Below, in pieces: positions 3,359-48,807 of a stretch of DNA of 64,000 bases; position 1 is the first letter of the stretch; every line of letters starts with the position of its first letter. Below the pieces are notes generated by a model. The model was not told where the DNA came from, ran no database searches, and saw only the letters and a program-made list of their open reading frames with translations. Position numbers and translations under genes: made by a program. Origin of the DNA: Mobula hypostoma (lineage: Eukaryota); NCBI RefSeq assembly GCF_963921235.1, contig NC_086097.1, positions 51,276,001 to 51,340,000 on the forward strand, written 5' to 3'.

Positions 3359-4869
3359 CAGGGGTCCCCTGCTTTTCAAACGTTCGCTTTATGAAACCTC
3401 GCTGTTGCAAAACACCTACATTAGTTACCTGTTTTCGCTAACAGAAGGTGTTTTCACTGTTACGAAAAAAGGCAGTGTGCGAAAAAAGCAGCGCGTGCCC
3501 TGAGCAGCTGCTCCTCCCCTGGAACTGCATTCTAGCCGGCATTGCTTAAACACGTGCCTGTGAGCAGCTGTTAGCAAGATGAGTTCAAAGGTATCAGAAA
3601 AGCCCAAAAGAGCTCGTAAGGGTGTTACCCTTAGCATAAAACTAGACATAATTAAGCGTTTCGATCGTGGTGAACGAAGCAAGGACAAAGTGAGTTTGGC
3701 TTGTGGAAGTTGACGAAGATGATGTTGAAGAGATTTTGGCATCCCATGACCAAGAACTGATAGATGAAGAGCTGATGCAATTGGAAGAGGAAAGGATAAC
3801 AATTGAAACCGAACGCAGTAGCGAACGGACCAAAGGTGAAGTTGTCCAGGAACTGAACGTGAAGCAACTGCATGAGATGATAGGAAAATGCGTGAGGATA
3901 AGCAGTCAAGCATTCTGCCATTTTTCAAGCCTTCCACATCAGCCACAGAAGACGACGAACATCGACCTTTGACATCGAGGCAGGCAGACACAGAAGAAAA
4001 TGACCTGCCTGCCCTGATGGAAACAGACGACGAGATGACATCTCAGTGTCCCACCACCCCAACCCCTGGGCTGAGGACCGATACATTGCCGCGGAGAATG
4101 CAGCAGTAGCCGGGATGCATCCAACACATCCTTAAGAAAAATGCCGAAATAAACAATCTAATTAATTAGGTGCCGCCCAGCATGTAAATGTCGGCCCAGA
4201 TCAGAAGCGATTGCCGATTGTGTCGCCTCTGATCTGGGCTAACATTTACATGCCGGACGGTACCTAATTAATTAGCTTGCTTATTTCGGCTTTTTTCTTA
4301 AAGATGTGCTAGGTGTGTCCCGGCTACTGCTGCATTCTCCGCGGTTCGGTATCGGTTCACTGCTCGGAGGTTGGGGTCCACCCCAACCTCCAACGACTCA
4401 GCCTAACACACTATCATCAGTGTGCTCAGCACTGTCTTTCTAATTCCGGTAAGTGATACTACACTGTACATACATTATTTCTACTTTATATAGGCTGTGT
4501 ATTTTTATGTGTTATTTGGTATGATCTGGCAGCTTCATAGCTTAAAGGTTACTGGAGAGAGTGTTTCTGCCAAGAGCGCTTCCGTGAGATTTTCACTACC
4601 GAGAATAGTGTGGCAATTATTGTAGAAAAGTATTTATACTTTATACAGGCTGTGTATTTATCATATCATTCCTGTTTTTACTATATGTTACTGTTATTTT
4701 AGGTTTTATGTGTTATTTGGTATGATTTGGTAGGTTATTTCTTGGGTCTGCGAACGCTCATAAATTTTTCCCATATAAATAAATGGTAATTGCTTCTTCA
4801 CTTTACGATATTCTGGCTTATGAACCGTTTAATAGGAACGCTCTACCCTCGGATGGCGAGGGAAACCTG
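3359..4869 (+). mobile_element. Tigger/pogo (Tc1-mariner) internally deleted DNA transposon
   Basis: TA|CAGG...CCTG|TA ends with imperfect TIRs. The transposase N-terminus from ATG 3579 (MSSKVSEKPKRARKGVTLSIKLDIIKRFDRGE, CENP-B/psq HTH-like) is joined to a Tigger-type C-terminus (EVDEDDVEEILASHDQELIDEELMQLEEER). The DDE core is missing. Confidence 0.85.
4057..4377. repeat. Long imperfect inverted repeat (hairpin) inside the Tigger element
   Basis: ccgcggagaatgcagcagtagccggga...taattaattaggt...gcccagatcaga pairs with tctgatctgggc...acctaattaatta...tcccggctactgctgcattctccgcgg; loop at about 4211-4223. Confidence 0.9.
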
Positions 4870-8109: not shown

Positions 8110-8880
8110 TTCAATCAGAAATTTGTTAAATGATAAAGTCTGGATGGTCAAACTTGAAGGCAGAGTACAAGGTTAACAGCAGAATTCTTAGCAGTGTGGC
8201 GGAACAGAGGGGTCACTTTGATAGGGTGGTTAAGAAGGCATATGCTGTGTTGGCCGTCATTAGTAGGGAGATAGAGTTCAAGAGCCGTGAGGTCATGTTG
8301 CAGCTCTATAAAACCCTGGTTACACCACACTTACTGTGTTCAGTTTTGGACACCTAAATATAGGAAGAATGTGAAGCTTCAGAAAGGGAACAGAGGAAAT
8401 TTACCTGAATGCCATCTGAATTGGACAGCAGAAATTATAAGGATAGGTTGATCTCCTTGGATCAAAGAAGGATGAGAGGTGAATTAATAGAGATGTACAA
8501 AATGATAAGATACATAGATGAAGTGAATAGCCACAGCATTTTTCACAGGGCAGAAATGGCAAATACGAGGAACTACGGTTTTAAGGTGATTGATGGGAAA
8601 TAGGGGGAATGTCAGAAGTAAGTTTTTTTCAGAAAGATGTAGAATCTTTAGGGAGGGAGCAGAGGATATTTACCAAATTGCTGCCTGGATTAGAGAGCAT
8701 TCTTATGAGCAAAGGTTGAGTGAGCTAGGGCTTTTCTCTTTGGGATAAGGAGGATGAGAGGTGACTTGATAAAGGTGTGCAAGATGATAAGAGACATAGA
8801 CAGAATACAAGAGGGTATAACTTTAAAGTGACTGGAGGAGAATATGGAGGGGGGAGGTGAGAGGTAGCTTTTTTCCCCTA
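8110..8880 (+). mobile_element. CR1 LINE ORF2 3' fragments (two joined pieces)
   Basis: VVKKAYAVLA...EFKSREVMLQLYKTLV and RRMRGELIEMYKMIR motifs; the region restarts at about 8640. Confidence 0.85.
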
Positions 8881-10682: not shown

Positions 10683-11072
10683 TAATCCAGGCAGCATTTT
10701 GGTAAATATCCTCTGCTCCCTCTCTAAAAGATTCTACAAAAAAAATTACTTTTGACATTCCCCCTATATTTTCCATCAATCACCTTAAAACCATAGTTCC
10801 TCGTATTTGCCATTTCTGCCCTGTGAAAAATGCTGTGGCTATTCACTTCATCTATGTATCTTATCATTTTGTACATCTCTATTAATTCACCTCTCATCCT
10901 TCTTTGATCCAAGGAGATCAACCTATCCTTATAACACCTGCTGTCCAATTCAGATGGCATTCGGGTAAATTTCCTCTGCTCCCTCTCTAAAGCTTCACAT
11001 TCTTCCTATATTGAGGTGTCCAAAACTGAACACAGTAAGTGTGGTGTAACCAGAGTTTTATAGAGCTGCAAC
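10683..11072 (-). repeat. Inverted duplicate of the CR1 segment 8297-8692
   Basis: Near-identical to 8297-8692 on the opposite strand (compare ORFs 8409..8603 and 10724..10960), including the same private junction. Confidence 0.9.
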
Positions 11073-25487: not shown

Positions 25488-26073
25488 CTGCAAGCACACA
25501 ATACAGCTTCACCATCCCAAACCAAATTTTATTATTACAAGTTTTCACTAAAGTCCATGCTTATCCAGATCAATCTCTATTCTGGCCTGAAAGCTATCAA
25601 TATTCAGTGTAACCACAACAGTTGGACAAAGTCGAACCCTATTCAAAATGCAAGTACAAACTTTGCAGTGATAATGGATTGTAATTATAAAGACTTGAAT
25701 AGGGTGAGAAGGGAAACCATCTCCATCCAGCCTTGATGGGCCTTAACTCAAAAAATATGATTGAAAATGCAAATATTGCTAATTGTATGATCTGCACCTC
25801 CAGACTTTACCTCAAAGTAACCAGCCTTTTGGGCTATCCACAATACTGTATAGTGAATGTTCCATCGAAATGTCCATTCTTTGAGTAAAAGCTACACCAG
25901 AAGCAAAAGCCTACAACTTGGCATTTTATTGGCTAGATGTTCAGCTGAAGGCACAGTTTATTCATGCGAGTTTGCAAACCATCATCTAAGACTAGAGTAG
26001 CTACATTATATGGCGGGAAGATTGATTGTTGGAATACAAGCAATACTGTTATTTCCAATTTATTACCTAGCGT

Positions 26074-26920
26074 CATAGAACAGTACAGCACAGAAACAGA
26101 TCCTTCAACACATTTAGACTGTGCCAAACTATTATTCTGACTACTCCCATTGACCTGCACCTGGACCACTGCCCCCCCCCCCGCCCCCAATACCCTTACC
26201 ATCCATGTACCTATCTAAATTTCTCTTAAGCTGAAATCAAATCCACATCCACCAATTTTGCTGGCAGCTTATTCCATACGCTCACCACCCTCTGAGGGAA
26301 GAAATACCTCCTCATATTCCCCTTAAGTATTTCACCTTTCACCCTTAACCCATGACCTCTAGTTCTGGTTTCACCCAACCTCAATGGAAAAAGCCTGCTT
26401 GCATTTACCCAATCTATACCCTTCATAATTTTATATACCTCAATCAAACATAACTTCATCCTCTTATGCTCCAGAGAATAAAGTTGTGACCTACTCAACC
26501 ATTCCCTGTAACTTTCAATCTTATTGACTGGTGACCTTAACTGCACATAATACTCAAAATCAGGCCTCGCCAATGTCTTATACCAATCTTGGCACCATCC
26601 GCAAATTTGCTGATCTAATTTATCACATTATCATCCAGATTGTTGATGTAAATGACAAACAACAATAGACCCAGCACCAGTTCCTACAGCACTCCAGTAG
26701 TCACAGGTTTCCAGTCAGAGAGCGACCATTGAAGGATAGCTAATGTTATTTTGTTGTTTAAGAAAGGTTCCACTCTCTGGCTTCTCTTGTGAAGCCAATG
26801 TATAATCCAATTTACTATGTCATCTTGAATACCAAGTGCAGAATTTTCTTGATCAACCTCCCATGCAGAACCTTGTTGAAGGCCTTGCTAAAGTTGATGC
26901 AAACAACATTCCTGGTAACT
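26074..26920 (-). mobile_element. CR1 LINE fragments
   Basis: LYSLE.KRM...LIEVYKIMKGID...TRGH.LRV...F.QRVVSVWNKLP motif and KFADG remnant. Confidence 0.85.
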
Positions 26921-27039
26921 TCCATACAGATGATCACTCTGGCCTACTTCTGTTAGATCTCTGATCTAAATACAGGTTGTGCAGAGAACTCACTTTGCGT
27001 GACCAATCTATTGTTAGTTTCAATTATACAGGGAATTGT

Positions 27040-27500
27040 TGAGAGCTTCAGTCATATGGAGCATTGGTGAGACCGCATTTGGAATAATGTAAACAGGATT
27101 GCTCTCTTATTTAAAAAAGGATGTTAATATATTGTAAACAGTTCTGGGGATGTTAACAGATATAGACAGGTTGTCGTTTGAGGAAAGGTGAGACAGGTTT
27201 AGCTTCTTTCTGCTGATGTTTAGAAAAGTGAAGGAGAGATTTGGTTAAACAAACAGTAAATTCTGAGGGGTCTAGAAGAATGTGGATGAACCTGGAATGA
27301 GATGTCAACATTTAAAAACAAGCGTCATGCATTTAATACAAGATGAAGACTTTGGAACTCTCTTCCTCAAAGTGACAGATGAGTCTTTAAACATTCCCAA
27401 GACACAAGTAGGTAATTACTGATAAAAGAGTGAAAGGTGAACATGGGTTCATGAGAATGCAGGGTCAAGGTTATATTCAGGCGAGTTTAAATGGAAGAGT
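27040..27500 (+). mobile_element. Old CR1 3' fragment
   Basis: gcattggtgagaccgcatttgga (LVRPHLE) motif, heavily degenerate. Confidence 0.6.
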
Positions 27501-28159
27501 GGGGAAGGGGTTATGGTAACCATGACAAACGTAGGTAACGTTGAATATTTTACTCCATTTCCTGGCCGGCAGCCATCCAGGTTAAGAGGTCAGTGGCTGT
27601 CAAGAAGAAAAACTCTCACTGGACAGTTACTGTCAGTTGTTGGAGAAAAGGTTGAGACATTCAGGATGGGGATGGTGTTTGATCATTCAACGAAAGGTTG
27701 ACGGGGGAGTGGATATATAAGGCTGTTCAGATGCCCCACAAGCAGTACCAGGTAGTTCGATACTCTTCTGTTGAAACATAGTGACTCATGTCTCTACAGT
27801 TGCTAGCTTTCCCCGAACACTGGGAAAACAAGGCTGTAGCTTACCCCAAACTTTGGACATTGTTGTTATTTTTGAAAATCTGAAAACTGTGACAGGCTGC
27901 AAAGGAAGCCCAGATTATTAAAGTTATTAGCTCATATGACCATAAACTGCAAGACAATGCAATATTCTGTAGGTTAACGGGATGGAGCAGTCAAAGCATA
28001 ACCCACCCCGCCATTTCTACAGCCAATGCTTAGGAATACTCTTTTTGTTAAATGTATTATGTAAATGTAAGCAACTTAAAAACTTAGGGGGAATAAAAGG
28101 GGCATCTGAAGTGCTGCGCTCTCCAGTCTAAACCTGCAAACATTCACAATTCTTAAGAA

Positions 28160-28335
28160 AGGTGGTGCAACAGTTAGTCCTGCTGCCTCATGCTCCAGGA
28201 ACCTGGGGTTCACCCTGACCTCAGGTACTTTCAATCACCGTGGAGTCTGCACCTTCTCCCTGGGACCACCTAGGTTCTGCTAGGTGCATCTCTCACATCC
28301 CAAAGATGAGATGGTGGTCAAATGCTGCTGTAAAT
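28160..28335 (+). mobile_element. tRNA-derived SINE 5' part
   Basis: ggtggtgcaacagttagt...gctgcctca..ctccagg.acctggggttca head and cacatcccaaaga core. Confidence 0.65.
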
Positions 28336-28339
28336 TAGT

Positions 28340-28897
28340 CAAAGTTCAAATAAATTTATTATCAAAGTACATACATGTTACCACATACAATCTTGAGAAT
28401 GATTTTCTTGTGGGCATACTCAATAAATCCATAACAGAACAATAACCACCATGGAATCAATGAAAGACCACACCAACTTGGGCTTTCAACCAGTGTTCAA
28501 AAGATAACAAATTGTTCAAATACAAAACAAATAAATAAACAAACAAACAATAAATATTGAGAACATGAGATGAAGAGTCCTCGAAAATGAGTCCATGAAA
28601 GTGAGTCCATAGGCTGTGGGAACATTTCAATGATGGGGCAAGTGAAGTTTAGTGAAGTTCTCCCCTTTGGCTCAAGAGCCTGATGGTTGAGGAGTAATAA
28701 TATTCCTGAACCTGGTGGCATGAATCCTAAGGCTCCTATACTTTCTTCCTGATGACAGCAGTGAGAAGAGAGCATGGCCTGGGTGGTGAGGGTCCCTGAT
28801 AATGGATGCTGCTTTCCTGCAACAATGTTTCATGCAGACGTGCTCAAGACAGACTGGCCATATCCACTACTTTTTGTAGGATTTTCCATTCAAGAGT
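28340..28897 (-). mobile_element. Rex1-like LINE 3' end
   Basis: Minus-strand DPHHPGHALFSLLSSGR motif; tail tgataataaatttatttgaactttga. Confidence 0.8.
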
Positions 28898-28928
28898 TTA
28901 ATGAATCAAAATGAAAAATGGTGAAAAA

Positions 28929-29506
28929 TGATATCGTATCCGTTACATAGGGGCCGTGGACAATTCTGATTTGATGGAGATGGACGTGAAAGCACAGAGG
29001 AACATCTGGAAAAATTTCTGAAACGCTCATTCGCTGCTGTTGATACTGCGCGGTCAGGAATCTTCTGGATGGAAGGTCTCAAAATCCCCGGCTTTGCCTA
29101 GTGTTGGCGACCGAGATTGAGGTCGAATCGTTCGGACAGAGATGGTGCTCAGTACTCAGTGTCTGAGAGCTGATTCGGAGGCTCGAAGTTTTCGGATGAC
29201 TCTGAGACGGACTGTGGTCGGGCATGGCAGGAAGAGTTTTCTTCCTTCTCCCATCTGCGTGAGTTGTGGGACATTCGAGAGACTTTGAACTTTTTACTGT
29301 GCTCATGGACTTCTTCATCAAGTTATGATATTGTTGCACTGTTGTAACTATATGTTATAATTATGTGGTTCTGTCAGTTTTTTCAGTCTTGGTCTGTCCT
29401 GTGTTTTGTGATATCACACCGGAGGAAATATTGTATCATTTCTTAATGCATGCATTACTAAATGACAATAAAAGAGGACTGCGTGTCTTCATAATCTAAA
29501 AAAAAA
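28929..29506 (+). mobile_element. Family A non-coding repeat, second copy (5'-truncated)
   Basis: Colinear similarity to 12343-12995 (gaacatctgga.aaa.ttctgaaa; taactatatgttataattatgtggt; atgcatgcatt; aaatgacaataaa). Confidence 0.75.
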
Positions 29507-29991
29507 TGTCAATCTACTTTTGGGACACTAACTTACAGAGGAAGAGGAGAGAACAGGAACTTTGGTGCTGCTCAGATGGCAGTCCGCTCGGACTTAGGGC
29601 AAATGATCTTCTTCTGTGTTGCCCCAACTAAGAACTAGCATCTTCATGACTTTGTATGGCTTATCTGCTGGTTTGGTTGTTTAAGGGAGAAACACAGCTC
29701 TGATGTCAGACAATCGATTCCAAGTTAAAATTTCTGATGGACATAATGTGTGGAACTAGAAGTGGAACTGGTGCACTATCATAAACTGTCTCATACTGAT
29801 ATTTATTAAAAAATGTTCCATGGAAGACATGATTGCACACAGGAAGGAAGATGATATGATCGAACATACTACAAAAATGTAGCTTCCTAAAAAAAGAGGA
29901 AGAGGGAGGAAAACATTTATGCCTTGCATAAACATCAATGAGGTGTAAATTAAATACTGAAATATTGCAAGTAAAATGAAGTTACTGTTGT

Positions 29992-30655
29992 AAACACAAA
30001 AGATTTGGCAGGTGTTAGAAATCCTGCAACACAGACAAAATGCTGGAAGCACTCAGCAGGTCAGACAGGTTTGGAGGGGAATAAACAGTCAACATTTTGG
30101 GCCAAGACTCTTCATCAGAAAAGGAAGGGGGAAGAAACCAGAATACGAAGGTGGGGGTGGGGGGGGGGAAGAAAAAGGGAAGGAATACAAGTGGCAGGAG
30201 ATAGGTAAAACCAGGTGAGGGGGAAGGTGGGTGAGTGAAGGTGGAGAAAAAAGAAAGCAGCCAAAAGGTGATAAATAGAAAACGCTGAAGAAGTAATCTG
30301 ACAGGAGAGGAGAGTGGACCATGGGAGAAAGGGAAGGAGGAGAGACACCAGATGAAAGTGATGGGTAGGTGATTAGAAAAGTGGAGCCATAATGGGTAAT
30401 GGAAAACCTGAGAAGAGGGGGAGAGGGGAGAAATTATTGGAAGTTAGAGAAATTGATATTCATGCCTTCAGGTTGAGGCTACCCAGAAGAAAGTGCTGTT
30501 CCTCCAACTTGAGAGTGACCTCATCATGGCAATAGGGGAGGCGATGTACCATTATGTCGGAATTGGAATGGGAATAGGGGGAAAACCTGCCTCTTGTGAT
30601 GGACTGAATGAAGGTGCTTGACAAAGCGGTCCACTAATCCACATTGGATCTCACT
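29992..30655 (-). mobile_element. Penelope-like element 3' remnant
   Basis: Minus-strand GIY-YIG C-terminal-like segment (SEIQCGLVDRFVKHLHSV), pyrimidine-rich spacer, hammerhead-like motif at 30086-30118, terminus gacctgctgagtgcttccagcattttg. Confidence 0.7.
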
Positions 30656-31825
30656 ATTGATTTTACATAAGCCATCATAAATGAAATTAGAATGGGACAA
30701 ATAATAAAACATGCCAAAATATTAGAGACATTTCATACATTTCAACTGCAGTGAAGTCTAACATCAGTTTCAGAACACCTTCTTAGATCACACAGACTAT
30801 TAGACACAAAATTATAAATCTTATTTCCCTGTACTGATTATTTTCTGAGTTTTTAAAACATATTGTCCTTTAAACATTATGAATTATTTTAGGCCAGCAT
30901 GGAGGCTCTCATCACTATGACAATTCTCTGTTCAAGTTAATTTGAAACAGAACACATTGTTTGCCTAATTTCGACCACACACATGCACTTCCCCAAAATA
31001 GATCTGTTTTTTCTATTAAATAGTGAATTTAGGAAGAGGTTGGTTTTGCAAACCTTTGGATTCCCTAGACAAAAACAAGTGTACTACTCAAGTTCAGTTT
31101 GCTTTTTTAGTAGGATAATATACTGACTCTGCTGCTGCTTATACTATGATACAAAAGAGATTCAAACTGAACTATTTAGATTATCTTGTGTGTAGCTTAG
31201 AAGGGAATGTAAACACGTGAAGTGGTGCAAAGTGGAAGAGGAAGATAGAAAACATGATGTCTCGTTGAGATAGAAAATCCCACTGTCTGCAGTGGCTACT
31301 GGACATGACAGGCTATTTTACAGAGAGCAGAGTTATCAAATTACTGGAAGTTGACACTTATTCAATGGTACTTCTTTTACTGGTACTCAAAGAGAGAGAA
31401 CAAATATAGTTCTATAAAGGTAATCCAAAATGTTTTATTTTAGTGCGTTCAAATTAGCTTGAGTCATTCTAATCTGCAATTTAATCTAAAACCTCCGATA
31501 GAAAGTGGTTTATTTTCCTATTTAAATTCCAGAAGATTACAAGAGGACTCAGGTTATATACAGTGAGCCATATAATAAGTAATAGTTAAGTCTTCTCTTC
31601 CCTCCCCCTACTTGCTCCCTGATCTGCTGCGTGACTAGAATTTTCTGTTTCATTTCAGATTTTAGCATCTGCAGCACTTTGTGCTTGAATCAGAGTAACA
31701 AGAACTTGAGTATTGTGGCCTTGTCAAACCAAAGTCAATGGTTGGGCAAGGCTCTGTACTTAAAAGGAGTGTAGAAGTACTTGATAAACAAGATCAAAGT
31801 CAGAAAATATACCAAATGCTCAAGG

Positions 31826-31904
31826 TAGGGGTTCCAACCTTTTTCATGCCATGAACCACTCCCATTAAGCAAGGGGTCCTTGGACTCCAGGTTGGGAAAC
31901 CTTG
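31826..31904 (+). mobile_element. Tiny hAT-type MITE
   Basis: Ends taggggttccaacc / ggttgggaaaccttg; same family as 35555-35636. Confidence 0.6.
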
Positions 31905-31994
31905 CTCTAAGACATACTTTCACTTCTTAATTAACTGCTATAGGAAGGCAACAAAGCCAATAAAGTGTATATGGGCTGTATGCTTTAATAGCTA

Positions 31995-32260
31995 TTCCCA
32001 TAATCGGATCTGGGCCGTACCCTCCAAATATCCGGACCTGCCTCTCGGTTTTTCCTTTGCACTACCTTACTTCCCATTTTTCTATTTTCTATTTATGATT
32101 TATAATTCAAATTGTTAGTATTTACTAATTTTAACTATTTTTAATATTCTTAATAGTTAATATTTGTAATCCAGGAAGTGGGAAGCGCAGAATCAAATAT
32201 CGCTGTGATGATTATACGTTCTAGTACCAATTGTTTGGTGACAAAGTATAAAGTATAAGT
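31995..32260 (+). mobile_element. Probable 5'-truncated non-LTR element 3' UTR
   Basis: CpG-containing start, AT-rich body and tandem tail aaagtataaagtataag; family not determined. Confidence 0.4.
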
Positions 32261-32671
32261 TATTGTTTAATTACCAGACAACAGCTGGCAAAACACCCGA
32301 GTTATGCTGTCTGTACCACCGAGGAACTGCATTGTCAGCTAACATGCACTATGAAGTTAAAACCAAGTGACATATTTTATGCTGTAACATGCTGGTAATT
32401 CAGGAATTTTTAAATACAAGTGAAATAATAATCCAAATGTTTGACAAGATTAACATAGTGTTCCCTAGAAGACCCGTGTCTCAAGCGATTACAAAAGGCA
32501 GGGGTAAAGAGACAGCAAAGCAAGACACCTGTGGTTACTTGTGCAATTTCTGTTAGATCTGAAGGGGTGTGGGGTAGAGTTATTCATGTCTCATCTAATA
32601 ATTTGTTCACCGGCCCAATACTGAAGAGTTACAAACAAATCTTCAGCAGGAATTGGTCTCACTTGCAAATA

Positions 32672-33383
32672 CAGTAGATTCCGGTTAGTTGGGCCATCAG
32701 TTAATTGGGGCAGCCGTTAATTTGGGACAAATCTTAAAGAACAAAAATTCAATTGAGAAAATAGCTGGGATTCCCTTTGTTTATCTCAAACACTGTTCTG
32801 CTTAATCGGGACTGGAGACTGTTGCAGAACAGCTTCTACCTGGAGTTCAATTTTCAAATAGTGTCAGTTGTGTGTGCTTGTGTTCAAAATTAAGCAGTGA
32901 TGTTTGTCACTGAAAGTTTGTGAGAAATAAGCAGAAAAGACAATTTGGAACTGTTTTTGATCAATGTTTCAAGCATTCAAGTTTGGAGATGCCAGAACAA
33001 TCTAGGAATAAAAACGAAACAATTTAATTCCTTGAACAAATTAGAAACTACGCAGAATCTGAAGGTATTGACAATCATCTTGAATGTTACAATGATGTCT
33101 GTGCAGATTTGTTCATTTTTAGTCAATCAAAAGAACATGGCAGATAAATTCCTCTGTTGATAACTATTGGGAACTAGTACAGTTTTTCAGTATTGTAGTA
33201 TGATAGTGTTGTAACTTGTTCTGGATTTGATTCAAGTACATAAATTGTTACTCATTTAAGTGGTAGTTTGTCTTTTCTATACCTTTTCAACTATTTCCAT
33301 GAAACTTTGGCTAATCAGGACAGCCACTTAATTGAGCCAAAATGTACTGGTCCCAACGTGTCCCAATTAACTGGAATCCACCG
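32672..33383. mobile_element. Tigger-like MITE
   Basis: TA|CAGTAGATTCCGGTTAGTTGGG ... CCCAATTAACTGGAATCCACCG|TA terminal inverted repeats, with subterminal ttaattggg repeats. Confidence 0.85.
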
Positions 33384-34639
33384 TACTTGAGTCAAATTTG
33401 ATACAAAATTATCCCTTTCCAATTTCATTGTCATTCACGGCAAGGAATATCTAGGCAATTTAAATTAGACTTTGTTAGGAGCCAAAATAGATCAGGCTTA
33501 AAAATAGTGGAGAATTACTTCAAGCCACTCTCAATCTCTATGAACAACTAGCCAGCAATGGGAAATATGCAAGTGTGAAATGGATGAGTCACTGTACGTG
33601 CTGACAGCTCATAAGGGTAGCCTTCAAATGGACAAAGATGAAGCTGATGAAAGAAAGGCACCCTAAGTAAATATAAGGGAATAATGCAGATGTACAAAAT
33701 GTATAAAAAGTAAACAGACAAAGATTAGAAAGAGTAAGAGGAAATATAAATAAAATAACAAAAGTAAACTGACTTTTTTATAAGCACAACATTAATTAAA
33801 GGGAATAGGGAAATAATTAAATCACTGTTAACTTATACAGTTAGATAAATCACTGGAGATGATAAATAATCTTAGTATTTACACTTGCAGGTAAAATTAA
33901 ATATTCAAAAGGAAATAATTTAAAGAGAATGTTACCAAAAACAGTAATGTCACCAGGCCAAGATGGTAAAATATTGGAGAGAATCTCTATCAGGTCTGTG
34001 GGAGTAGAGCAGGGGACAGGAGTCATGAAAGATATTGTAGGCTTCACCAAGGATAAGGAGGAAGCGCATGTTGGGTATGGGATATTGTAATCAAACAAGT
34101 CACAAGATCTATAGGAGATTTAGGAAATGAAAAGAAAACTTCTGGGATAATAGGAACATTGGGAAAGTTTGTAAAATGGTCAACTTAGGAGTCGTACAAA
34201 TTACAAAGGAATGATGAGAAAATTGGTCAATAGTGGAGGTGGTTTAAAGGTCACATGAGCAGAAACAGATCAGGGAAGTGTTAAGATTACAGGACATAGT
34301 TAGCTGGAGTAGAGATGAGCAAATGTAGTTTGTAATATAGCTTTAGTGCAGGACAGCTAATCATGAGATAAACAGAGTCACAACAGAAGGACCACACATT
34401 TGCAGGGAGAATGGGGGTGATGTCTGTCTGGTAAAGGAAGGCACGATCCCATTTTCAGGCAATTGGACGCAACCGCTCGGAGTTAAAACAAACCAAGTTC
34501 AAATAGTACAAAGAAAAGTGGATTATTGATGAAATTCTGAAATCTGCATATAGTTACATGAATATCGTTACTTTTCATGTAACACAGTCATCGGAGAGAG
34601 GGGACTTCACTCAGTTCTACTGCTCGAATAGAAAAGCCA

Positions 34640-35280
34640 GCAGTGGGTTGCCACAATGAAAAAGAGCTTTGACCAGTGACCAGTTGGCATTTGGTGTTGA
34701 TTAACAAGAGCAAATTAAAGGAAGTTAGGGGCAAGCACAAGGGCCGTAGTCTGTGTGGACAGAGTCAGGGTGATCTTGAATCTTCAGCTCTTCGAGGCTT
34801 CAGTAAAGAGAAAGCAAAGGAAAGAAAAGCACAAGGTTATTTTTTTCTGTCCTTCTTTATACCTGCTCAGCTGGGGCAGTAGAGATGCCAGGCAGGATAG
34901 TGGAATGTTCCTCTTGCAGGATGGAGGAAGGTAGGGACACCTGATGACTAGAACTGTGAGACGTGCATCCAGCTGCAGTTTCTAACAATCCGCGTTAAGG
35001 AGTTGAAGCTGGAACTGGATGAACTCCGAAACATTCGGGAGGCTGAGTGGATGATAGACGGGACATGTAGAGAGGTAGTTACACCCAAGATGCAGGACAC
35101 AGGAGTATGTTCACTTAAGACAGAGGTTTGAAGATTCTCGATCTATGAGGTCATGAAGGCATACAGTGAGAAGGCAGGAGATTGGGGCTGAGGGGAAAAC
35201 TGGATCAGCCATGATGAAATGATAGAGCAGACTTGATGGGCCAAATAGCCTAATTCTGCTCCTACATTTTATGGTCTTAT
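34640..35280 (+). mobile_element. Internally deleted CR1 (ORF1 start joined to 3' UTR)
   Basis: ORF1-like MPGRIVECSSCRM...C..CIQLQFLT.RVKELKLELDELRNIREAE (zinc finger plus zipper), followed at about 35110 by CR1 3' UTR (gatcagccatgat...gggccaaatagcctaattctgctccta). Confidence 0.7.
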
Positions 35281-35329
35281 TGTAAACTGCTGGAAGTTTT
35301 TTGGATTGGTGGAGCACCTCTGAGCTTGC

Positions 35330-35750
35330 TCTCTCCTGTGCTCCCCAGCCTTTATTCCAGGGCAGGAGAAATCTGGATCTATAGGGTGTGTGTTTGAGTT
35401 GAGAGGGGAGAAATATGAGAAATCTGAGGGGTAAGCTTTTCTTCAGAAGGTGGTATATGTATGAAATGATTAGCCAGAGGATTTAGTTGAGACAGATACT
35501 ATTACAATGTTTCAAGGGCATTAGGACAAGTACTTGGATAGGAAAGGAGCAGAGCAGAGGTCCCCTTCCTGGGGTCTACAGACCTCTTCTTTAATGATAT
35601 TGGTCCATGTTATTAAAAAAAAGGTTAGGAACCCTGGAGTAGAGGGATTTGGGCCACATGTGCACAAACAGGATTAGTGTACATAGGCATTTATGGCCAG
35701 CATGGACAAAGTGGTGTCTATTTCTGTGTTGTGCATTTCTACAATGCTAT
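35330..35750 (+). mobile_element. CR1 3' fragment containing a hAT MITE
   Basis: ctgaggggtaag.ttttc..cagaaggtggt...tggataggaaagg CR1 3' region. Confidence 0.65.
35555..35636 (-). mobile_element. Tiny hAT-type MITE
   Basis: CAGAGGTCCCC ... GGTTAGGAACCCTG with 8-bp TSD gagcagag / gagtagag. Confidence 0.75.
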
Positions 35751-37922
35751 GTTAGGAAAGAACTGGCAGAGCCCCCCAACGAAACTTTTACAAAGTCTCT
35801 GAAAAACACCAACAGAAGCAAAGGATCATGGAATTTGTTTCCTGGATACAGGTGGTTAAGTGCGGGAAAATACTTTAATGTTCAAAAGAGCTGAAAAAGC
35901 CCTGCAAAATATACTTGAAGGACAACTTACTGATTACGCTAGTCCCTTGAATTTAACCAAAGATAGAAGTTTTCACAGCAGCCTAGGACTACGCAACAAG
36001 ATAACAACCAAGGAACGAATCCGCAATGGATAGGTTCGTGAACTTCAATTTAAAAAATCATGGATCTCTGTTGCATCCAATAAACATTCCCCATCAACAA
36101 ATACATGTCTCTAATGTTCCAAAAACATTAACAAGTGTCAGTAAACACTATAAAATGGCTATATATTACAATATCAGCTAACAAAGTACTTCTATTGAAC
36201 AGACCGATAGGTACAAACGGTGATGGGTTTCGAAATCATTAGGTGCAGCTGTGTGAACAAAGACTGCTCTCTAATGCAGAAGCGCACTGCAGGGAACCAC
36301 TTGACACAAGTGGTCTGGAAACTGGGTACATTTTTTATTACAGACAATGACGGGCTCTTCACTGAGCACATGTCTAGAGAAGTACTTGTTTGAAAATATT
36401 TGAAATGGGGCCTTGGGCTGACCTCATGGTTAACTGCAGATAATGAGGACTGAGTGTACAGATAGTACATCCACAACCAAGACAGCACGGCTTGGGGAGC
36501 AGTTGTACAATTGACTGGGTCACCTGCAACTGCAATTTGAAAGTGGAATAGTGACTTTCAACGGCCAGAGTATTGATTGCATTTTTGACAGGTATAACAC
36601 AACTTCAATGATAAAATACTTAGCAAGCCAGGCAACATCTGTGTAGGAAGAAACAGATTTAATGGTTCAGGTCACCAACCATAAGGGATCCTAGTTGTCC
36701 ATCTTGGTGTAAACCACAATTTTCTCTCCTATTGAACTGTTGGAAAGACTTGGGCTAGAGACTCTGAGCACCAGAAAGTGGAATGTGTTTCATTCATGGT
36801 AAAAGGAAAATGAATGAGGCAATAAATATTATCCATTAATTCCTCCTTCAGATGAAAGGAAACTTTTAAAGCCCATGGCACGCAAATAGTGGCTGAATCA
36901 GGAACAGGCAGAAAATGGTTCTGTAAAAGCCCTGTTTGATTAATTGAATTCAATATTTTGAAATCCAAGCATATGTAATAAAATCCATGTACACTATATG
37001 CACAGGTTGGGATGAGGATTATAAACTGCAATATCAAAGGAAACTATAAAAATGTAATAATAAAAGAAGGCAACGTGAATGTATAAATTTGATTAGGGTG
37101 TAGAAATTGAAATTTGGTCATGTAGACAGGATGAATTATTTCAGAGCTCGCTGCTACTGATGGTACCTGGGGGGATCATTTAAGTAACACTGCAGGACAG
37201 CACTGATTACATAGATGGCTCATCCAAGGTGCCCCACAGATTTGTTCACTGTTCAGGTATCCCATTTTAGAAGATTACAAAACTGTAAAGCATACAACCA
37301 AGACTTACTGGTTTGAGGTTATAAAAATTAATGCTTCTCAGTAGAAGAGTGTTGAAAATTGGAAACATTTTGGCAGGTTGTAAAATAGGCGGCTGAAATA
37401 CAGAATGAAAACGATCACGAGCAGAGGGATAGCAAGTCTCACTAAGTGGCGTGACAGTGGGGTGACTGCTGGAGTCTCTGGTTTATCATTTATAAAATAC
37501 AGTATATTACTTGGATGAAGGGCACAAAGATATGGCTGCTACATTTGCTGATGACAACGATAGGTAGGTTAAGCAAGTTGTGAAGACGATGTAGGGAGAC
37601 TGGAAAGTGACATAGGAAACATGAGCAGGCATAGATTAGACAAAGGTAATATGTGAAGTGTAAAATTTTCTATTTTGGCAGGAGAAATGAAAATACAGAT
37701 CAACCTTCACTAATCTGACTACCTGTAATCCGGTTCCTTCAATAATCCGCACTGATTTCAAATTTTCCGCGCAACTGTAATTTCAAATTTTCCGGGCCAC
37801 CGTACCAATCTGCTGCGCATTGTTTTGGTTGCGCTAGATCTGTTCACGTGTGGGCACGCTCTTGTAAACACAGACAGGCGATTCCTGCTTGTTTTCCTGC
37901 ATTTATTAATATAATTTGTGTG

Positions 37923-38094
37923 AGGCACTGCCGCCCGGCATCTGCCCGTCTCACCCGCCAGTGGTGGGGGAAGCTGGCACGCGCTGGGTCGGTCCGCCTT
38001 CTCACACGCCTGCCGGCAGTCGCGCCCTGCCGTCTGGCACCACCCGGCCGGCGCTCCATTCTCTTCTGCCTACGACCTCAGATCAGACGTGGTG

Positions 38095-38141
<47 letters not shown>

Positions 38142-38167
38142 AAGGATTCCCTCAGTAACTGCAAGTG
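37923..38167 (+). pseudogene. Dispersed rDNA fragment: probable ITS2 3' end plus 5' end of 28S rRNA (28S from about 38073)
   Basis: CGACCTCAGATCAGACGTGGTGACCCGCTGAATTTAAGCATATTACTAAGCGGAGGAAAAGAAACTAACAAGGATTCCCTCAGTAAC is the conserved LSU 5' terminus (LR0R/ITS4 primer region). The preceding ~150 bp is very GC-rich and is assigned to ITS2 by position only. Confidence 0.9.
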
Positions 38168-38465
38168 CAGTGTAGTCTTTGGGGTAACTGCAAGTCTATG
38201 TCTTTGCTATCGCTTAGCTCACGCTTGAGCGCTGGTAGCAGGTGTGCTTTACTTTTTGCTGGGGGAGAGGGGATTGTTGCTCACTGCCGCTTACACACGG
38301 GAGGGAGGGGAGCTGGGGGGGGGGGAGCTTAGGGGTTCTAACATATAACTGTCATTCATTCTTTGGGGCACTCCTCTGTTTTCATAGATGGTTGCGAAGG
38401 AAAAGCATTTCAGGATGTATATTGTATACATTTCTCTGACATTAAATGAACCTTTGAATCCTTTG
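38168..38465 (+). mobile_element. 3' part of family B non-coding retroelement
   Basis: Colinear with 48370-48650 (tagtcttt.gggta..., ctaacat.taactg.cattcattctttggggcact, ctgacattaaatg); tail cctttgaatcctttg. Confidence 0.8.
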
Positions 38466-38814
38466 CTATTTTAACGGTATGATGAGGCGGTTAGCTATTG
38501 CTTAATGTGATCCTTCTGTAATTCAGCATCTTCAGTAATCCGGCACTTCTCAGGTCCCAATGGTGCCGGATTAGTGAAGGTCGACCTGTAGTATATTTCG
38601 TAAGTGAGAGATTGTACTGCTCTGTGACGTGAAGGGATCTAGTTACCCTAGCATACCATGCACAAAGTCTGGCATGCAGACACAGAAAGTAACTGTGAGA
38701 GATAGCAGAATATTATTGTTTATTGCAGCAGAGTTGAATAATTACACTTCAGTTACACAGGGCACTAGTAATACAGGGGATTGGTATCTTTGTTTAAGAA
38801 AGGTTATTTTTGTT

Positions 38815-38904
38815 TTGGAAGCAATTTAGATAAGGCTTAATTGGAATGGGCAGATTTTATGACTTGGAAGCAATTTTGATAAGGCTTAATTGGAATGGAC
38901 AGAT
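38815..38904 (+). repeat. Tandem duplication of about 47 bp within an old CR1 fragment
   Basis: ttggaagcaattt.gataaggcttaattggaatgg.cagatt occurs twice. Confidence 0.85.
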
Positions 38905-38964
38905 TGTCTTTTGAAGGAAGATTGACTAAACTAGGTTTTATCTGCTGGAGTTTAAATAGATTCA

Positions 38965-39215
38965 CAATCTCACACAGCATGGAAACAGGTCTTTTGGCCA
39001 GTTTGTCTCTGCCAAACAAGATGATTAAATTAATTATCTAATCTAATTTGATCTGCCTACATTTGGCTTGTGTCCCTCAACACCTTCCCCATCTAAGTAC
39101 CTGTCCAAACACCTTTTAAGCATTGTAATTGTACCTGCCTCTCCCACCCTCTCTATCAGTTTGTTCCATATACCCACCACTCTGTGTGGTAAAACTTGCC
39201 CATCAAATCCCTCTT
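38965..39215 (-). mobile_element. CR1 3' end
   Basis: Minus-strand gtggtgggtatatggaac...gtggg agaggcaggtacaattaca...ggacaggtac CR1 3' region. Confidence 0.7.
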
Positions 39216-39228
39216 CACAAATTTCTTT

Positions 39229-40226
39229 CTTTCTTTCTTTTTAAATCTTTTTATTGAGTAAGTATACAAAAAAGGTAAGCCATATAAACATTAATACAAT
39301 GTTAAAGTATAATAAAATTCCAAAAGGTAACAATACCAAAAAGAAAATACTACAAACAATGTAATTTAAGCATAAGAAACCAAGATAACATAATAGTATA
39401 CTAGATTTTATATATATCAATGGAAAAAAAGAAAAAAAAACCCCCAAAAAAAAAAAAAAAAAACCCACCGTGCAACTAACTAAAAGCAAAGCAAAGCAAT
39501 GGGCTAACTTGAAACCAAACAGAGTTAAACTTAAAATCACGTCCTCAATCCCGACCTCCATTAAAACAGTGAAAAAAAACAAGAAGGGTAAATATTACAT
39601 TAAATGAAAATATCGAATAAAAGGTCCCCAAATCTGTTCAAATTTAAATGAAGAATCATAAAGGTTACTTCTAATTTTCTCCAGATTCAAACATAAAATC
39701 GTCTGAGAAAACCAAAAAAAGGTAGTTGGAGCATTAAGCTCTTTCCAATGTTGTAAAATACATCTTTTCGCCATTAAAGTAAGAAATGCAATCATTCTAC
39801 GGGCTGAAGGGGAAAGATTACTAGAAATTTTAGGTAGTCCAAAGATAGCAGTAATAGGGTGAGGAGAGATATCTATATTTAATACCTTAGAAATAATATT
39901 GAAAATATCTCTCCAAAAAGTTTCCAAAGTAGGGCAAGACCAAAACATATGAGTTAAAGAGGCTATCTGCCCCGAACATCTATCACAGAAAGGATTAATA
40001 TGCGAGTAAAAACGCGCTAACTTATCTTTGGACATATGTGCTCTATGCACCACTTTAAATTGAATTAGGGAATGTTTAGCACAAATAGAGGAAGTATTAA
40101 CTAATTGTAAAATCTGCCCCCAATCATCCACAGAAATGGTAAGCCCCAATTCCTGTTCCCAATCTACCCTAATCTTATCAAATGGAGCTTTCCTGAGTTT
40201 CATAATAATATTATAAATCATAGCCG
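39229..40226 (-). mobile_element. Young 5'-truncated L1-clade LINE
   Basis: Uninterrupted ORF2 C-terminus with CCHC knuckle (FCDRCSGQIASLTHMFWSCPTLETFW), stop at 39595, T-rich 3' UTR, AATAAA and (AAAG)n tail; 12-bp TSD acaaatttcttt at 39217-39228 and 40227-40238. Confidence 0.9.
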
Positions 40227-40640
40227 ACAAATTTCTTTGAGGTAATGTGGATCCTTTGATTCCATATAATAAATAACTGAAATTCTCAAGCTCAGCAGCA
40301 TTTAAACCTTCAAATACACACAGAATCAAGTAACTAACAGCAGCAGTTACAGTTCCACTCTCTCCAAGCTTGAAATGGCACTTAAGCAGCAATTCCTTTA
40401 ATCACTCTGCATCAGAAGAGCTATTTATAATGAAGGAATCATCCGTGTTAATCAGAGACCCAGTGTTAGCAGAATGTGATCATGTCATGGTGCAGGTTGT
40501 GTATCTTTTTCAAACAAACCAAGCGTTGATCCTATAACACCCATTTCAGAAAAAAAATTACAATGTGTTGTTAATTTATGTTTCCAAATAAAATATACTT
40601 GCTTGCACTCAGATTAGGTGCTTAGGTGCTGTAAGTAACT

Positions 40641-42088
40641 AAGAAAGGAAAGGCAGCAGGTCCTGATGAATTAGTAATAGAACAAATTATCACCCTTGAA
40701 GATTATGGAATCGAAAAACTTACTGATTTAATCAATGACATTTATGAGACTGGAATAATACCAGAAGAGATGAAAAAAAAAATCAGTATTTATCACTCTT
40801 TCTGAGAAACCTGGAGCAATAGAATGTGAATTACACAGGACCATAAATTTAATGAGTCATATCACCAAGATACTTCCAAGAATTTTGACGACAAGAGCTA
40901 ACAGTAACATACAAGCTGAAATAGGTAAAGAACAATGTGGTTTTGTGAAAGACAAAGGTACAAGAAACGCAATATTGATGTTAAGGATACTATCAGAATG
41001 AGCTATTCAAGTGCAAGAAGATTGTTTGTTTTATCGACTACACAAAAGCATTTGATGAAGTGAAACACAATAAGTTATTTGAAATATTACAGGAAACTCT
41101 AGATCTAGATTCAAAAGATCTCCGCCTAATCAGAAATTTGTACTGGGAACAAACTGTCGCTGTAAGAATAGATGGAGAAGTGAGTCAATTTATGAAAATC
41201 AAGAGAGGTGTTAAACAAGGGTGTGTTTTCTCCCCTGATTTATTTAATGTGTACAGTGAAACAGTATTACAAAAAATAAGAGACATCTTGGGAATCAAAG
41301 TTGACGGTGAAAACATCAATACTTTCAGATATGCAGATGACACTGTGTTAATTGTGAGTATGGAGGAAGAACTACAAAACTTAATTGATATAATTGTTGA
41401 AGAAAGTGCAAAAATGGGTCTATCAATTACAAAAAGACAGACTGTATGGTGATATCCAAAAAGGAGAATCCTATCTGCAGGCTGAGAATAAATGGGGAAG
41501 ACATAAAACAAGTACAGAACTTTTGCTACTTAGGAAGCTGGGTGACATCAGATGGCAGGTGCGACATGGACATCAGAAGAAGAATGGGGATGGCAAAAGA
41601 CACCTTTACAAGAATGAAGAGTATACTGACTAATACTAAACTAGGCATGACAACCCGCCTCAGGGTACTAAAATGTTACATTTATCCAGTTATGTTATCT
41701 GGCTCAGAATGTTCGACAATATCTAGTAACATGAGGAAAAAGAGTTGAAGCAGCAGGGATGTGGTTTTTGAGGAGGATGCAAAGAATATCATGGACGAAA
41801 CGAATATCTAAGGAGGATGTCATGAACAGAGCAAACACAAAAAGAGAAATAATGTATGAGATCATGAAAAGGCAACGTAACTTCATTGGACATGTGATTA
41901 GGAAAGAGGAGTTAGAATGCACGGTTATTATGGGAAGAAAGCAAGATGAAGACAAAGACAAATGATGATGGAGACAGCAACCAGAGAACTGAAAATGAAT
42001 ACCAATGAATTGATCCACCTGACCGGAAACAGGAGTGTGTGGGCCATGGCAGTCAAAGCTCAAACTGGGCACGGCACCTGATGATGAA
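40641..42088 (+). mobile_element. RTE-clade LINE, RT region to 3' end (frameshifted)
   Basis: GKAAGPDEL, CELHRTINLMSHITKIL, EQCGF, FIDYTKAFD, GVKQGCVFSP, FRYADD, F.YLGS and MWFLRRMQRISW motifs; (GAT)n tail. Confidence 0.88.
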
Positions 42089-42272
42089 TGTATTCTGTTT
42101 TGATCTTCCCAATATCCGACCTTGTGGAAGGTCTAACTGCAAATGCTGCACTTTGTCGAATAGATGATTTCATTCTGACAACACTGCATATGAAAATCTG
42201 TAAGCTTGAAACAGAGTGCACGTGTTGAAGATGTTTTGATGTAGTTTTCTTGTCATCTTTTTGTCCACTTAC

Positions 42273-45870: not shown

Positions 45871-47857
45871 GGTGACACTTGTTGATAGCTGATACCTCTA
45901 CCAAGACCAAACACACTTATCTTCCCCCATTACAGTGGCAAAAATAAACTACTGTCACTCACTTACTTCTTTCAAATACAACACATGCAATGCATTAACA
46001 GAAATAACACAAACCTGACAAAGTGATGAATCAGTTGAAGTTTGTTAATAACTGCAACAAATTTGCATTGCTTAGAGGTACTATGTATACCATCCTATGA
46101 TAGCTTATGGCACTGGAAAACAACTGCTCCAGTAACCACATGAGAAAGTTCACCTCCAAGTGCAGTACTTAAATTAAAGTATATCATTAGATCTCTCCGT
46201 TATAAGAGTAGCACTCTTTTAAATTGCTACCTCATGGCAGACACAACATTACAGAACATATAATGAATACAACAATTCTAGGTTCCAGCATGTGTTCCAC
46301 AGAGTATTAGAACTTCCTTAATGCAGTTTAACAGTTCAGTTAATCATGGGCTAGGCTTTTAATCTAGGTTACGGACTGCTAACAAGGTCAATCAACAGAA
46401 CACAGCCCATGACAACAAATCACTGATCCAATCTTCTTTAGCGACAACAGCAGATGTTGCGTGACCACAGAAAAGAAAATTCTTGAGCAGTATGCCCTTC
46501 CCACTGAAAAGGAATACCTATTGTTGATCAAAATCAGCCCATCTCCCGGGCTTTGCAGTGCATAATTCTGTGTATTCACTGCATAATGTATTCATCCAGT
46601 GCCTGCTTGACCAAAATGTGGGCCTGCCCAGCAGCAAGAGCAGCTGCATGGTGACAGATGGCTCCTCCTTCAACCGGGAACAATTTCAGTAGCATTATTT
46701 CAAAATAAACCACACACACAGTAAAGGGTCTGGCTAAGGGGAATCATGCAGAATTAAAAAAAACATATCTTTTCACTTATTTACAGTTACTGGGTTTTGA
46801 ACACACCGCAGAGTACATTCAAATTCCATTGAAAATATCAAAAATATTTTTGGGAATTACTCATGTGTATAAACGTACTCAGCACATGGGATATGCCCAA
46901 GCATATCTGCTCCTGACCGCCAAGCGGCTGATTCCAACTCTAAAGCACAACAACGTGCAGGTCACTCAAAACATGATAGGCAATTCCACAGCCAAACAGA
47001 TTTAACAAAGGCTCGTATGTGCACAGCCAAGAGTGTATTGAAGTGTCAAACATGTGATTTTTATTTATGGTTAAATACTTTGTGACCTTATTAACCCGAT
47101 TATTAATGAGAATGTCTTAAATGTCAACTAGCAAGAGTTTATTTTAATCCTAGCATATTATTCCTGTATCTCATATGCTACTTCTGAGAGGAAAAAAAAG
47201 AGCAAGACAGCACTTTTGCCAGGGTTACAATCTGAACCCCATGAATAAAAGAACAGATTTGAGAAGCAGCTAAGCCTTCTTTTGAAGGCTATAACTTCCA
47301 CCTGGCTTTTTATTGCCTTTTTGTAATTCTTTTTCCCAGCGAGCCAGCTGTTAATGGGGGTTGGGATTTTATGGGAGCAGCTGTCCTCTCAGATATGCCA
47401 CAATTCTGCCAATGACATTGGAACACCTTGCAATCTGTAAAAATGATTCAGATACATATTATTGACTGCAACTAAAGCAGAAACCTTCAAAAGGTCATTT
47501 GCTAATCTGGCCTCATTCTGATTGAAGGGGACTATCTTCCTTGCACTTCATGTAAATATTTGCTTCAAAAACTTCTCCGCAAAATTTGTTGAAACTAATA
47601 TTTTGTTATTCATTTTTGAAATAGAATACATCAGAGAATCCAAATCTTCCATTTCAAAGTGTCTGAAAAGTAACAGCTCTGTATCTAGCACCAACAGAGC
47701 AAGTGCCGGTATGAACACCATATCTGAAGAATTCGTTGTGCAACCCGGATCTATTTGCAAAAGTAAAATCCTCGCAAGCACTGTCTCTGGGTACAAGTAT
47801 TAAGCAGTGAACTTGTGGCTGTCAGAAAAAAATCAGGAAAGAACACAACCAGGTCTT

Positions 47858-48651
47858 AGGAGGATGATGGCACCTAACGGTGACTCCTTTGCTTGTAACT
47901 TCAGAAACAGCTCTATTTCTATCTTTGATACCTCCTCTTTCCCCCCTTTCAAAGTTCCTTTGAAGACCCTGACCTGGAGTTACACACTAACTCGGTTCTT
48001 TGCGGAAATGGGACCCGCTCTCAGGGCCTCACAACTGGCCGCTTTTGGTATGCTAAGGATGCGGCCTGGAAAACTAGCGCACCTTCAGGGTGCTGGATTT
48101 TCGTGGCTCTGCAGGTGAGCGGATTCAAGGCTGGTGCCGCCACCTGATGCGTCGTGGGAGATGGAAGATCGTACACAGTGAGTTAGCTGCACGCCCAGAG
48201 ACCCAAGTTCTTTGGGCACAGAGCTTGGAAAAACTGACGCAACAGAATTTTAACACCATAAATCAACGAGTTGCTTTGATATGTCTCCCCTCTCGATGTG
48301 AAACAGGGACACCTCCCACCCCTGTTAGGGAGAGAGTGCCTGTGGCATGTTGAATTACTGGGTGAACGAGTAGTCTTTAGGGTACTACAAGTCTGTGTCT
48401 TTACTGATGCTTTGCTGCATGATTGAGTGCTCAGTGGGGGGTGCTGATGCTTTTTTTGCTGGTGGGATGGTCGCTGCTATGATGCTGCTTATGTGTGGGA
48501 GGGGGGAAATGGGGGGGGTCTTTGGTATTCTAACATTTAACTGCCATTCATTCTTTGGGGCACTTCTCTGTTTTTGTGGATGTTTGTGAAGAAAAAGAAT
48601 TTCAAGATGTACATTGTGTACATTTCCCTGACATTAAATGTACCTATTGAA
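47858..48651 (+). mobile_element. Family B non-coding repeat, probably a non-autonomous non-LTR element (near full length)
   Basis: Starts aggaggatGATGGC and ends ctgacattaaatgtacctattgaa; its 3' third matches 38168-38465. Confidence 0.7.
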
Positions 48652-48807
48652 GTCAGAAGAGCCATCTGGATATCAGTAGGCTAACCTCTTCACTTCCCTT
48701 TCTCCCTATCCCTCAAGTATATTTTATGTGAGGGGTAAGGAAAATGTAATATTTTTACTATTTTAAAATTATTAATCTGATGAATAACACCGGTTTCCAT
48801 TAAATAT

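Follow-up and report, generated by a model that had tools for sequence, protein, structure and literature searches.

How does a piece of ribosomal DNA (rDNA) come to lie, fused to the tail of a retroelement, between the arms of a small DNA transposon in an intron? This question is raised by an element at positions 37696-38588 of a 64,000-nucleotide stretch of the Mobula hypostoma genome (RefSeq assembly GCF_963921235.1, contig NC_086097.1, forward-strand positions 51,276,001 to 51,340,000; hereafter the window), inside the gene for ninein (NIN). The answer that we favour, and consider probable, is that the rDNA is cargo captured at the DNA level by a family of pogo/Tigger-like transposons, and that the tail, which belongs to a repeat family referred to here as B, is a later 5′-truncated insertion into one copy, joined to the rDNA at a microhomology.

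The preliminary description of the locus had placed a TA-flanked transposable element of the miniature inverted-repeat type (MITE) here, containing in order a left arm, GC-rich DNA, the 5′ end of 28S rRNA, the 3′ part of family B and a right arm. Both this order of parts and the frame that encloses them were borne out. The frame consists of the following features, in which TIR stands for terminal inverted repeat:

37694..37695, unstranded: left TA target-site duplication, from the inverted-arm search
37696..37920, plus strand: left transposon arm, with a TIR at 37696-37715, copies of a subterminal motif at 37726 and 37743, a 25-nucleotide tandem pair at 37755-37804 and an AT-rich end (right boundary approximate)
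38467..38588, plus strand: right transposon arm, with a hairpin at 38530-38579 and a TIR at 38569-38588 (left boundary approximate)
38589..38590, unstranded: right TA target-site duplication, from the inverted-arm search

Together with the adjoining TA, the 20-bp inverted arms occupy 37694-37715 and 38569-38590 and agree at 20 of 22 positions (2 mismatches), with TA on both sides. The arm pattern gave 2 matches in the 64-kb window and 0 in 100 shuffles, and the element's pair is the only one of the form TACAG...CTGTA with at most 5 mismatches within 4 kb. A short subterminal motif is common to both arms, the right one of which also has the internal hairpin. All parts lie between two intact TIRs that are each flanked by TA, which counts for the favoured reading. 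Without the B piece, the element measures 591-606 bp. Its stop-free frames of at least 90 codons are 160 and 103 codons long, below the 300-amino-acid minimum that PMC9219625 gives for a transposase; with no transposase open reading frame (ORF), the element is a non-coding, non-autonomous DNA transposon. Tigger elements are described as having a TA target-site duplication and TIRs of 8-33 bp (PMC9219625; Tigger features also in PMC7386202), and we found both the TA duplication and short TIRs of 20 bp with 2 mismatches. Since TA and a short TIR also fit Tc1/mariner, these features do not separate the two groups. The pogo/Tigger label is our presumption from the style of the TIR.

One copy of the TIR pair is present in the window, and no second one was detected there. 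A scan of viral contigs with the TIR pattern returned 0 matches. The one match in metagenomes (L001, 1-1047) was rejected as chance, with no mate TIR seen and a bacterial-looking sequence around it; seen by eye, that contig contains its own family of short inverted repeats near 1-30 and 510-580.

What follows the left arm is ribosomal in one part and probably so in the other:

37921..38072, plus strand: GC- and CpG-rich block, probable 3′ end of internal transcribed spacer 2 (ITS2), placed by its position directly 5′ of the 28S start and its composition
38073..38170, plus strand: 5′ end of the 28S rRNA gene, from an RF02543 match at 38096-38175, with the first 23 nucleotides placed by position

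Positions 24-103 (of 3401) of Rfam model RF02543 align to 38096-38175 with 67 bits and an E value of 2.8e-15. Because model position 24 falls at 38096, the 28S start (model position 1) falls at 38073, exactly where the 28S 5′ end had been said to begin. This piece escaped a whole-window Rfam scan that used gathering thresholds and fast filters (0 matches). Immediately upstream, 37923-38072 is 72% GC with 16 CpGs, the sole such 150-nucleotide block in 64 kb, and its onset at about 37915-37920 is sharp, right after an AT-rich stretch. The block is probably the 3′ end of ITS2, judging from its place immediately ahead of the 28S start and from its GC-richness. As shark ITS2 is 1282-1365 bp long in PMC3322161, a 150-bp block would be its 3′ end only. 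The fold of the block is no better than those of shuffled sequences (z of −0.41; 66 of 200 shuffles equally good), and a pattern made from it had 0 matches in prokaryote genome contigs, as expected.

Around 38165-38170 the sequence changes abruptly from 28S to family B, a longer copy of which lies elsewhere in the window:

38155..38195, plus strand: 28S/B junction, with about 6 nucleotides shared by the two parental alignments (38165-38170) and an exact 12-nucleotide direct repeat at 38155 and 38184
38165..38466, plus strand: 5′-truncated 3′ end of family B, from the alignment to copy 2, whose short CTTTGAA-like tail here lies at about 38451-38466
47828..48651, plus strand: copy 2 of family B, longer and the reference for the tail, with a 7-bp duplication at 47821-47827 and 48652-48658

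The segment 38172-38458 aligns to 48370-48651 with 76% identity over 295 columns (E value of 3e-49), its only match in the window, and the alignment extends upstream to 38165 and 48362, respectively. The switch to the 3′ third of B near 48370-48650, with a tail built on a CTTTGAA-like unit, thus stands as it had been described, the tail having fewer than 2 copies of the unit. At about 290 bp, the nested piece corresponds to the 3′ 35% of copy 2 (about 824 bp), being truncated at its 5′ side and ending at the natural 3′ end of B. A 7-bp repeat stands at 47821 and directly after the tail of copy 2, a configuration equalled by 134 of 20,000 random pairs; a duplication placed right at the tail indicates that B is mobile as a retroelement in its own right. 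In copy 2 there is no tRNA gene, no Rfam match better than an E value of 0.75 and no long ORF, and from these features family B is read as an unclassified, presumably non-autonomous retroelement. Neither the GC block nor the arms nor the 28S piece match the upstream part of copy 2 (between 13 and 97 of 100 shuffles scored as well), so that they are not B's own 5′ region. Six CpGs are kept in the nested piece and lost in copy 2, and one is kept the other way, a balance which makes the nested piece the less decayed of the two. A pattern made from the B tail had 0 matches in viral contigs.

How the 28S and B sequences were joined is partly recorded at their junction. Rfam identities reach 38170 while the B alignment starts at 38165, so about 6 nucleotides are common to both. 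Exact 12-nucleotide repeats as close as those at 38155 and 38184 occur at only 2 of the 64,000 window positions; the first copy has 2 differences from the Rfam consensus, and the second has one gap and one change relative to B copy 2. From this pattern, the two sequences would have been joined under the guidance of microhomology, and a short slip may have accompanied the joining. For 5′-truncated insertions of a LINE (long interspersed nuclear element), PMC2912911 describes microhomology as well as short duplications and deletions of the target. Such microhomology is equally compatible with a 5′-truncated insertion into DNA and with an RNA template switch, and so does not discriminate between the two. 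Taken together, the cut 5′ side, the ending at the natural 3′ end of B and the roughly 6 nucleotides shared with 28S count for a later 5′-truncated insertion. The junction also bears on an explanation in which the rDNA is likewise the cargo of the family, and a break in this cargo was patched from a genomic B copy through microhomology, as a DNA-level repair. The rare 12-nucleotide repeat looks like templated slippage and no duplication surrounds the B piece, both of which such patching would accommodate; the piece nevertheless ends exactly at the B 3′ terminus with tail repeats, which reverse transcription predicts and random patching does not, and we give this explanation only a slight probability.

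The models can also be compared through target-site duplications. A 28S/LINE-1 chimera formed in a single event is expected to be flanked by a duplication around both of its parts (10.1101/2025.02.02.635956). Exact searches near the junctions revealed no duplication framing the rDNA and B piece as a unit. The best candidate, the 6-mer TGAGGC at 37921 and 38483, was rejected, as it lies 25 nucleotides from the tail and is reached by 2777 of 3000 random pairs. The B piece taken by itself likewise has no duplication near its junctions (best, a 4-mer), and wide windows around it are at background (2989 of 3000). The missing duplication around the unit counts for a separate arrival of rDNA and B and leaves a single retro-chimera unsupported, although the test is weak: in wide windows, the control B copy 2 was also at background (1667 of 3000), and power is low for a family with 7-bp duplications. 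The preliminary description had preferred a retrocopy of a 32S-type rRNA precursor joined to a non-LTR (long terminal repeat) tail. This proposal lacks its hallmark, within the limits of that test. The third of the options then listed, a DNA transposon that carries an rDNA piece, fits better; the second, an rRNA-headed SINE (short interspersed nuclear element), found no support at the locus.

Three explanations in which the rDNA arrived as RNA have to be weighed against this result. In the first, a retro-chimera inserted into a transposon, the reverse transcriptase passing from the B tail to the ITS2-28S precursor RNA, and founded a family or subfamily whose whole TIR-ITS2-28S-B-TIR unit was then spread by transposase. 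The common orientation of rDNA and B and the microhomology between them agree with it, as do the existence of human 28S/LINE-1 chimeras (n=18; 10.1101/2025.02.02.635956) and the precedent of MER6, a MITE that amplified a SINE body (PMC6887750); the founder's duplication could moreover have been lost by deletion. On the other hand, no duplication frames rDNA and B, and the human chimeras use segments of mature 28S, often from about position 3636, the words "ITS2" and "precursor" being absent from the main text of that source. We regard this explanation as unlikely. The second posits a single retro-insertion of pre-rRNA and B tail into an empty MITE, with no rDNA-carrying family involved. The ITS2/28S junction does exist as RNA in the 32S precursor, only one copy is seen in the 64-kb window, and orientation and junction microhomology are again as such an event would leave them; the duplication expected of it is missing here too, and its probability appears small. 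The third supposes an undescribed SINE family whose head is ITS2/28S and whose tail is B, and of which one member inserted into the MITE. The layout is that of a head plus a tail, and SINE heads that lack an internal promoter are on record (SINEU; PMC4494074), but this copy has no duplication and no second copy in the window, and 5S promoters serve the rDNA-derived SINEs that Table 2 of PMC10946416 lists, with the exception of SINE28. We consider a SINE of this kind very improbable. A further consideration against it is that a region transcribed by RNA polymerase I is not known to have an internal promoter.

It is highly improbable that the arrangement is an artefact of assembly. Against it stand the matching TIRs with TA on both sides and the divergence of the 28S piece from the Rfam consensus close to the junction. 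Of the words sampled from 37300-38800, a share of 0.77-0.81 is present in four sequencing runs of one sample, which is possibly the source sample and hence not independent; such shares are no test of the junctions. The index listed 23 runs, of which 20, in 9 studies, contain part of the stretch, with no RNA run among them. Neither the shares of that sample nor the remaining ones (0.39-0.42 for 4 runs of another organism, 0.22-0.25 for 7 rows and below 0.2 for 5 rows) show which part is present, and they were not used as evidence.

Capture of the rDNA by a transposon family, followed by insertion of B, would have proceeded in four steps. A founder transposon would have lost its middle, and template switching in the course of DNA repair or replication would have refilled it from the rDNA array, taking in the ITS2/28S junction. 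Transposase acting in trans would then have spread the TIR-rDNA-TIR unit to many sites, and one copy, as the TA-TIR...TIR-TA frame shows, landed in a decayed LINE within the ninein intron. Finally, a B transcript would have been reverse-transcribed into the cargo, stopping after about 290 nucleotides, with its 5′ end joined to 28S at the microhomology; a probable loss of target at the B site would account for the lack of a duplication. The last two steps could have occurred in the reverse order.

Several observations weigh against this reading. No second copy was seen in the 64-kb window, and the pattern scans of sequence collections were empty or returned one chance match. Because the B piece by itself also lacks a duplication, this absence separates the models poorly, and the wide-window test does not pick out its own control. 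Since duplications of family B may be only 7 bp long and can be lost, a chimera retains some of the probability. The orientation that the rDNA shares with B is also the one seen in most human 28S/LINE-1 chimeras (83%; 10.1101/2025.02.02.635956). Lastly, the identification as ITS2 and the pogo label are both provisional.

The surroundings of the element are those of a large intron on the opposite strand:

25489..42269, minus strand: ninein intron hosting the element (bounds approximate, from tblastn exon matches)
37507..37693, plus strand: decayed remnant of a LINE reverse transcriptase, the element's insertion site, in the left flank (from DNA and protein shuffle tests)

By tblastn, ninein exons were located on the minus strand at about 63999-63865, 42369-42270, 25488-25330, 5596-5543 and 2500-2303. 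A protein search with the last of these matched 17 proteins, 14 of which are named ninein, the best named match being from Hemitrygon akajei (97%), which makes a myliobatiform ray the probable host; Atlas, PDB and Pfam searches did not identify the ninein exons. With minus-strand exons on both sides of the element, its rDNA piece would be antisense in the NIN pre-mRNA, in agreement with what had been proposed earlier. Nothing at the locus points to a function, and this copy is most likely inert.

For the LINE remnant in the left flank, which we take to be CR1-like, one of 8 DNA targets gave a match that 0 of 200 shuffles equalled; in the protein comparisons, 0 and 6 of 1000 shuffles did as well. 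The right flank was considered as the continuation of the interrupted LINE and rejected, having no significant match to 8 DNA and 2 protein targets; the resemblance was an impression by eye. Located 220 bp to the right of the element is a 49-nucleotide tandem duplication (38807-38904, 90% identical), and about 1 kb away a 268-codon frame on the minus strand (39595-40401) contains a zf-RVT domain (PF13966, E value of 8e-07) and represents the 3′ end of a LINE that is fairly young. Farther off, 4056-4377 is a near-palindrome of 322 bp, 81% identical to its own reverse complement, whose ends do not match the TIR of the element; the coding remnant beside it (about 3570-4040) is acidic, has no significant Pfam match and is presumably Tigger-like. 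An inverted pair of LINE-like sequences (8297-8692 and 10683-11072), 93% identical over 399 bp and about 2 kb apart, is far closer than the other repeat pairs of the window, and possibly reflects a local inverted duplication or gene conversion.

The locus by itself adds little: it is one copy with a nested retroelement tail, the process is known, and a nested insertion of the ordinary kind is probably all that is specific to it. Only a multi-copy 28S/B junction would give it more weight. A family of rDNA-carrying TIR elements may, however, be undescribed in print. Among DNA transposons, Table 2 of PMC10946416 lists rDNA pieces for Daphnia Pokey alone, and a literature search over titles and abstract openings, with few subscription journals, found no DNA transposon with ITS2-28S cargo in a ray or another vertebrate. 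Should the family prove multi-copy, it would represent a vertebrate DNA transposon carrying 45S rDNA. Its dispersed ITS2-28S pieces would then confound estimates of rDNA copy number, fluorescence in situ hybridization of rDNA and ITS2-based identification of rays, and would preserve older ITS2 sequence outside concerted evolution. If instead a retro-chimera founded the family, a class I product would have been handed to class II mobility, leaving a fossil record of germ-line reverse transcription of nucleolar rRNA precursors and seeding antisense rRNA-junction sequence in many introns, and hence in many pre-mRNAs.

Comparison with known systems sets the element apart from each of them while locating its nearest counterparts. 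The ends of Pokey reportedly use a TTAA site, and the element was rejected as a Pokey or mPok on the grounds that its flanks are TA, not TTAA. Pokey and mPok of Daphnia (PMC3849761) resemble it as DNA transposons with rDNA-derived pieces, which in Pokey include about 50 bp of ITS2. Pokey is, however, of the piggyBac type, targets a site in the 28S gene and has in its 5′ region 2-5 repeats of intergenic spacer (IGS) and ITS2 pieces; the element, on the contrary, is TA-flanked and intronic, with one ITS2-like block running into 28S and no IGS repeat seen.

Among retroelements, SINE28 (PMC4994717) is likewise a dispersed 28S fragment, one copy of which lies inside another transposable element, MER5B. 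It derives from the 3′ end of 28S, as the preliminary description had correctly stated, and its A-rich tail is accompanied by duplications in 24 of 29 cases, whereas the element has the 28S 5′ end, a B-family tail and no duplication. As a candidate SINE28 it was therefore rejected, given its match to positions 24-103 of the 3401 of RF02543 and the lack of both an A-rich tail and a duplication. In human 28S/LINE-1 chimeras (10.1101/2025.02.02.635956), a 28S piece stands 5′ of a retroelement 3′ end in the same orientation, and the size of the piece in the element is within their range of 50-482 nucleotides; a same-sense layout with rRNA 5′ of the retroelement would also arise in half of independent nested insertions. 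Verification of these chimeras came from duplications on either side of the two parts; many begin near position 3636 of 28S, and they are reported with no mention of spacer sequence. The element differs in having no duplication.

Two further systems are built on TIRs. MER6 has Tc1/mariner-type MITE ends around a SINE-derived middle (PMC6887750), but its SINE body belongs to the amplified family, while the B piece of the element is probably private to one copy. The multicopy Pack-TIRs of animals (PMC8277862) hold host sequence of non-transposon origin between the TIRs of a DNA transposon, and the 28S 5′ end, at an E value of 2.8e-15, occupies just that place in the element. They differ in their cargo, neither "rDNA" nor "pogo" occurring in the main text of that source, and in the extra retroelement tail of the element; the multicopy cases described there form small families. 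Capture by template switching followed by spread through transposition is the route given for Pack-TIRs, and it is the same route by which the element would have acquired and dispersed its rDNA.

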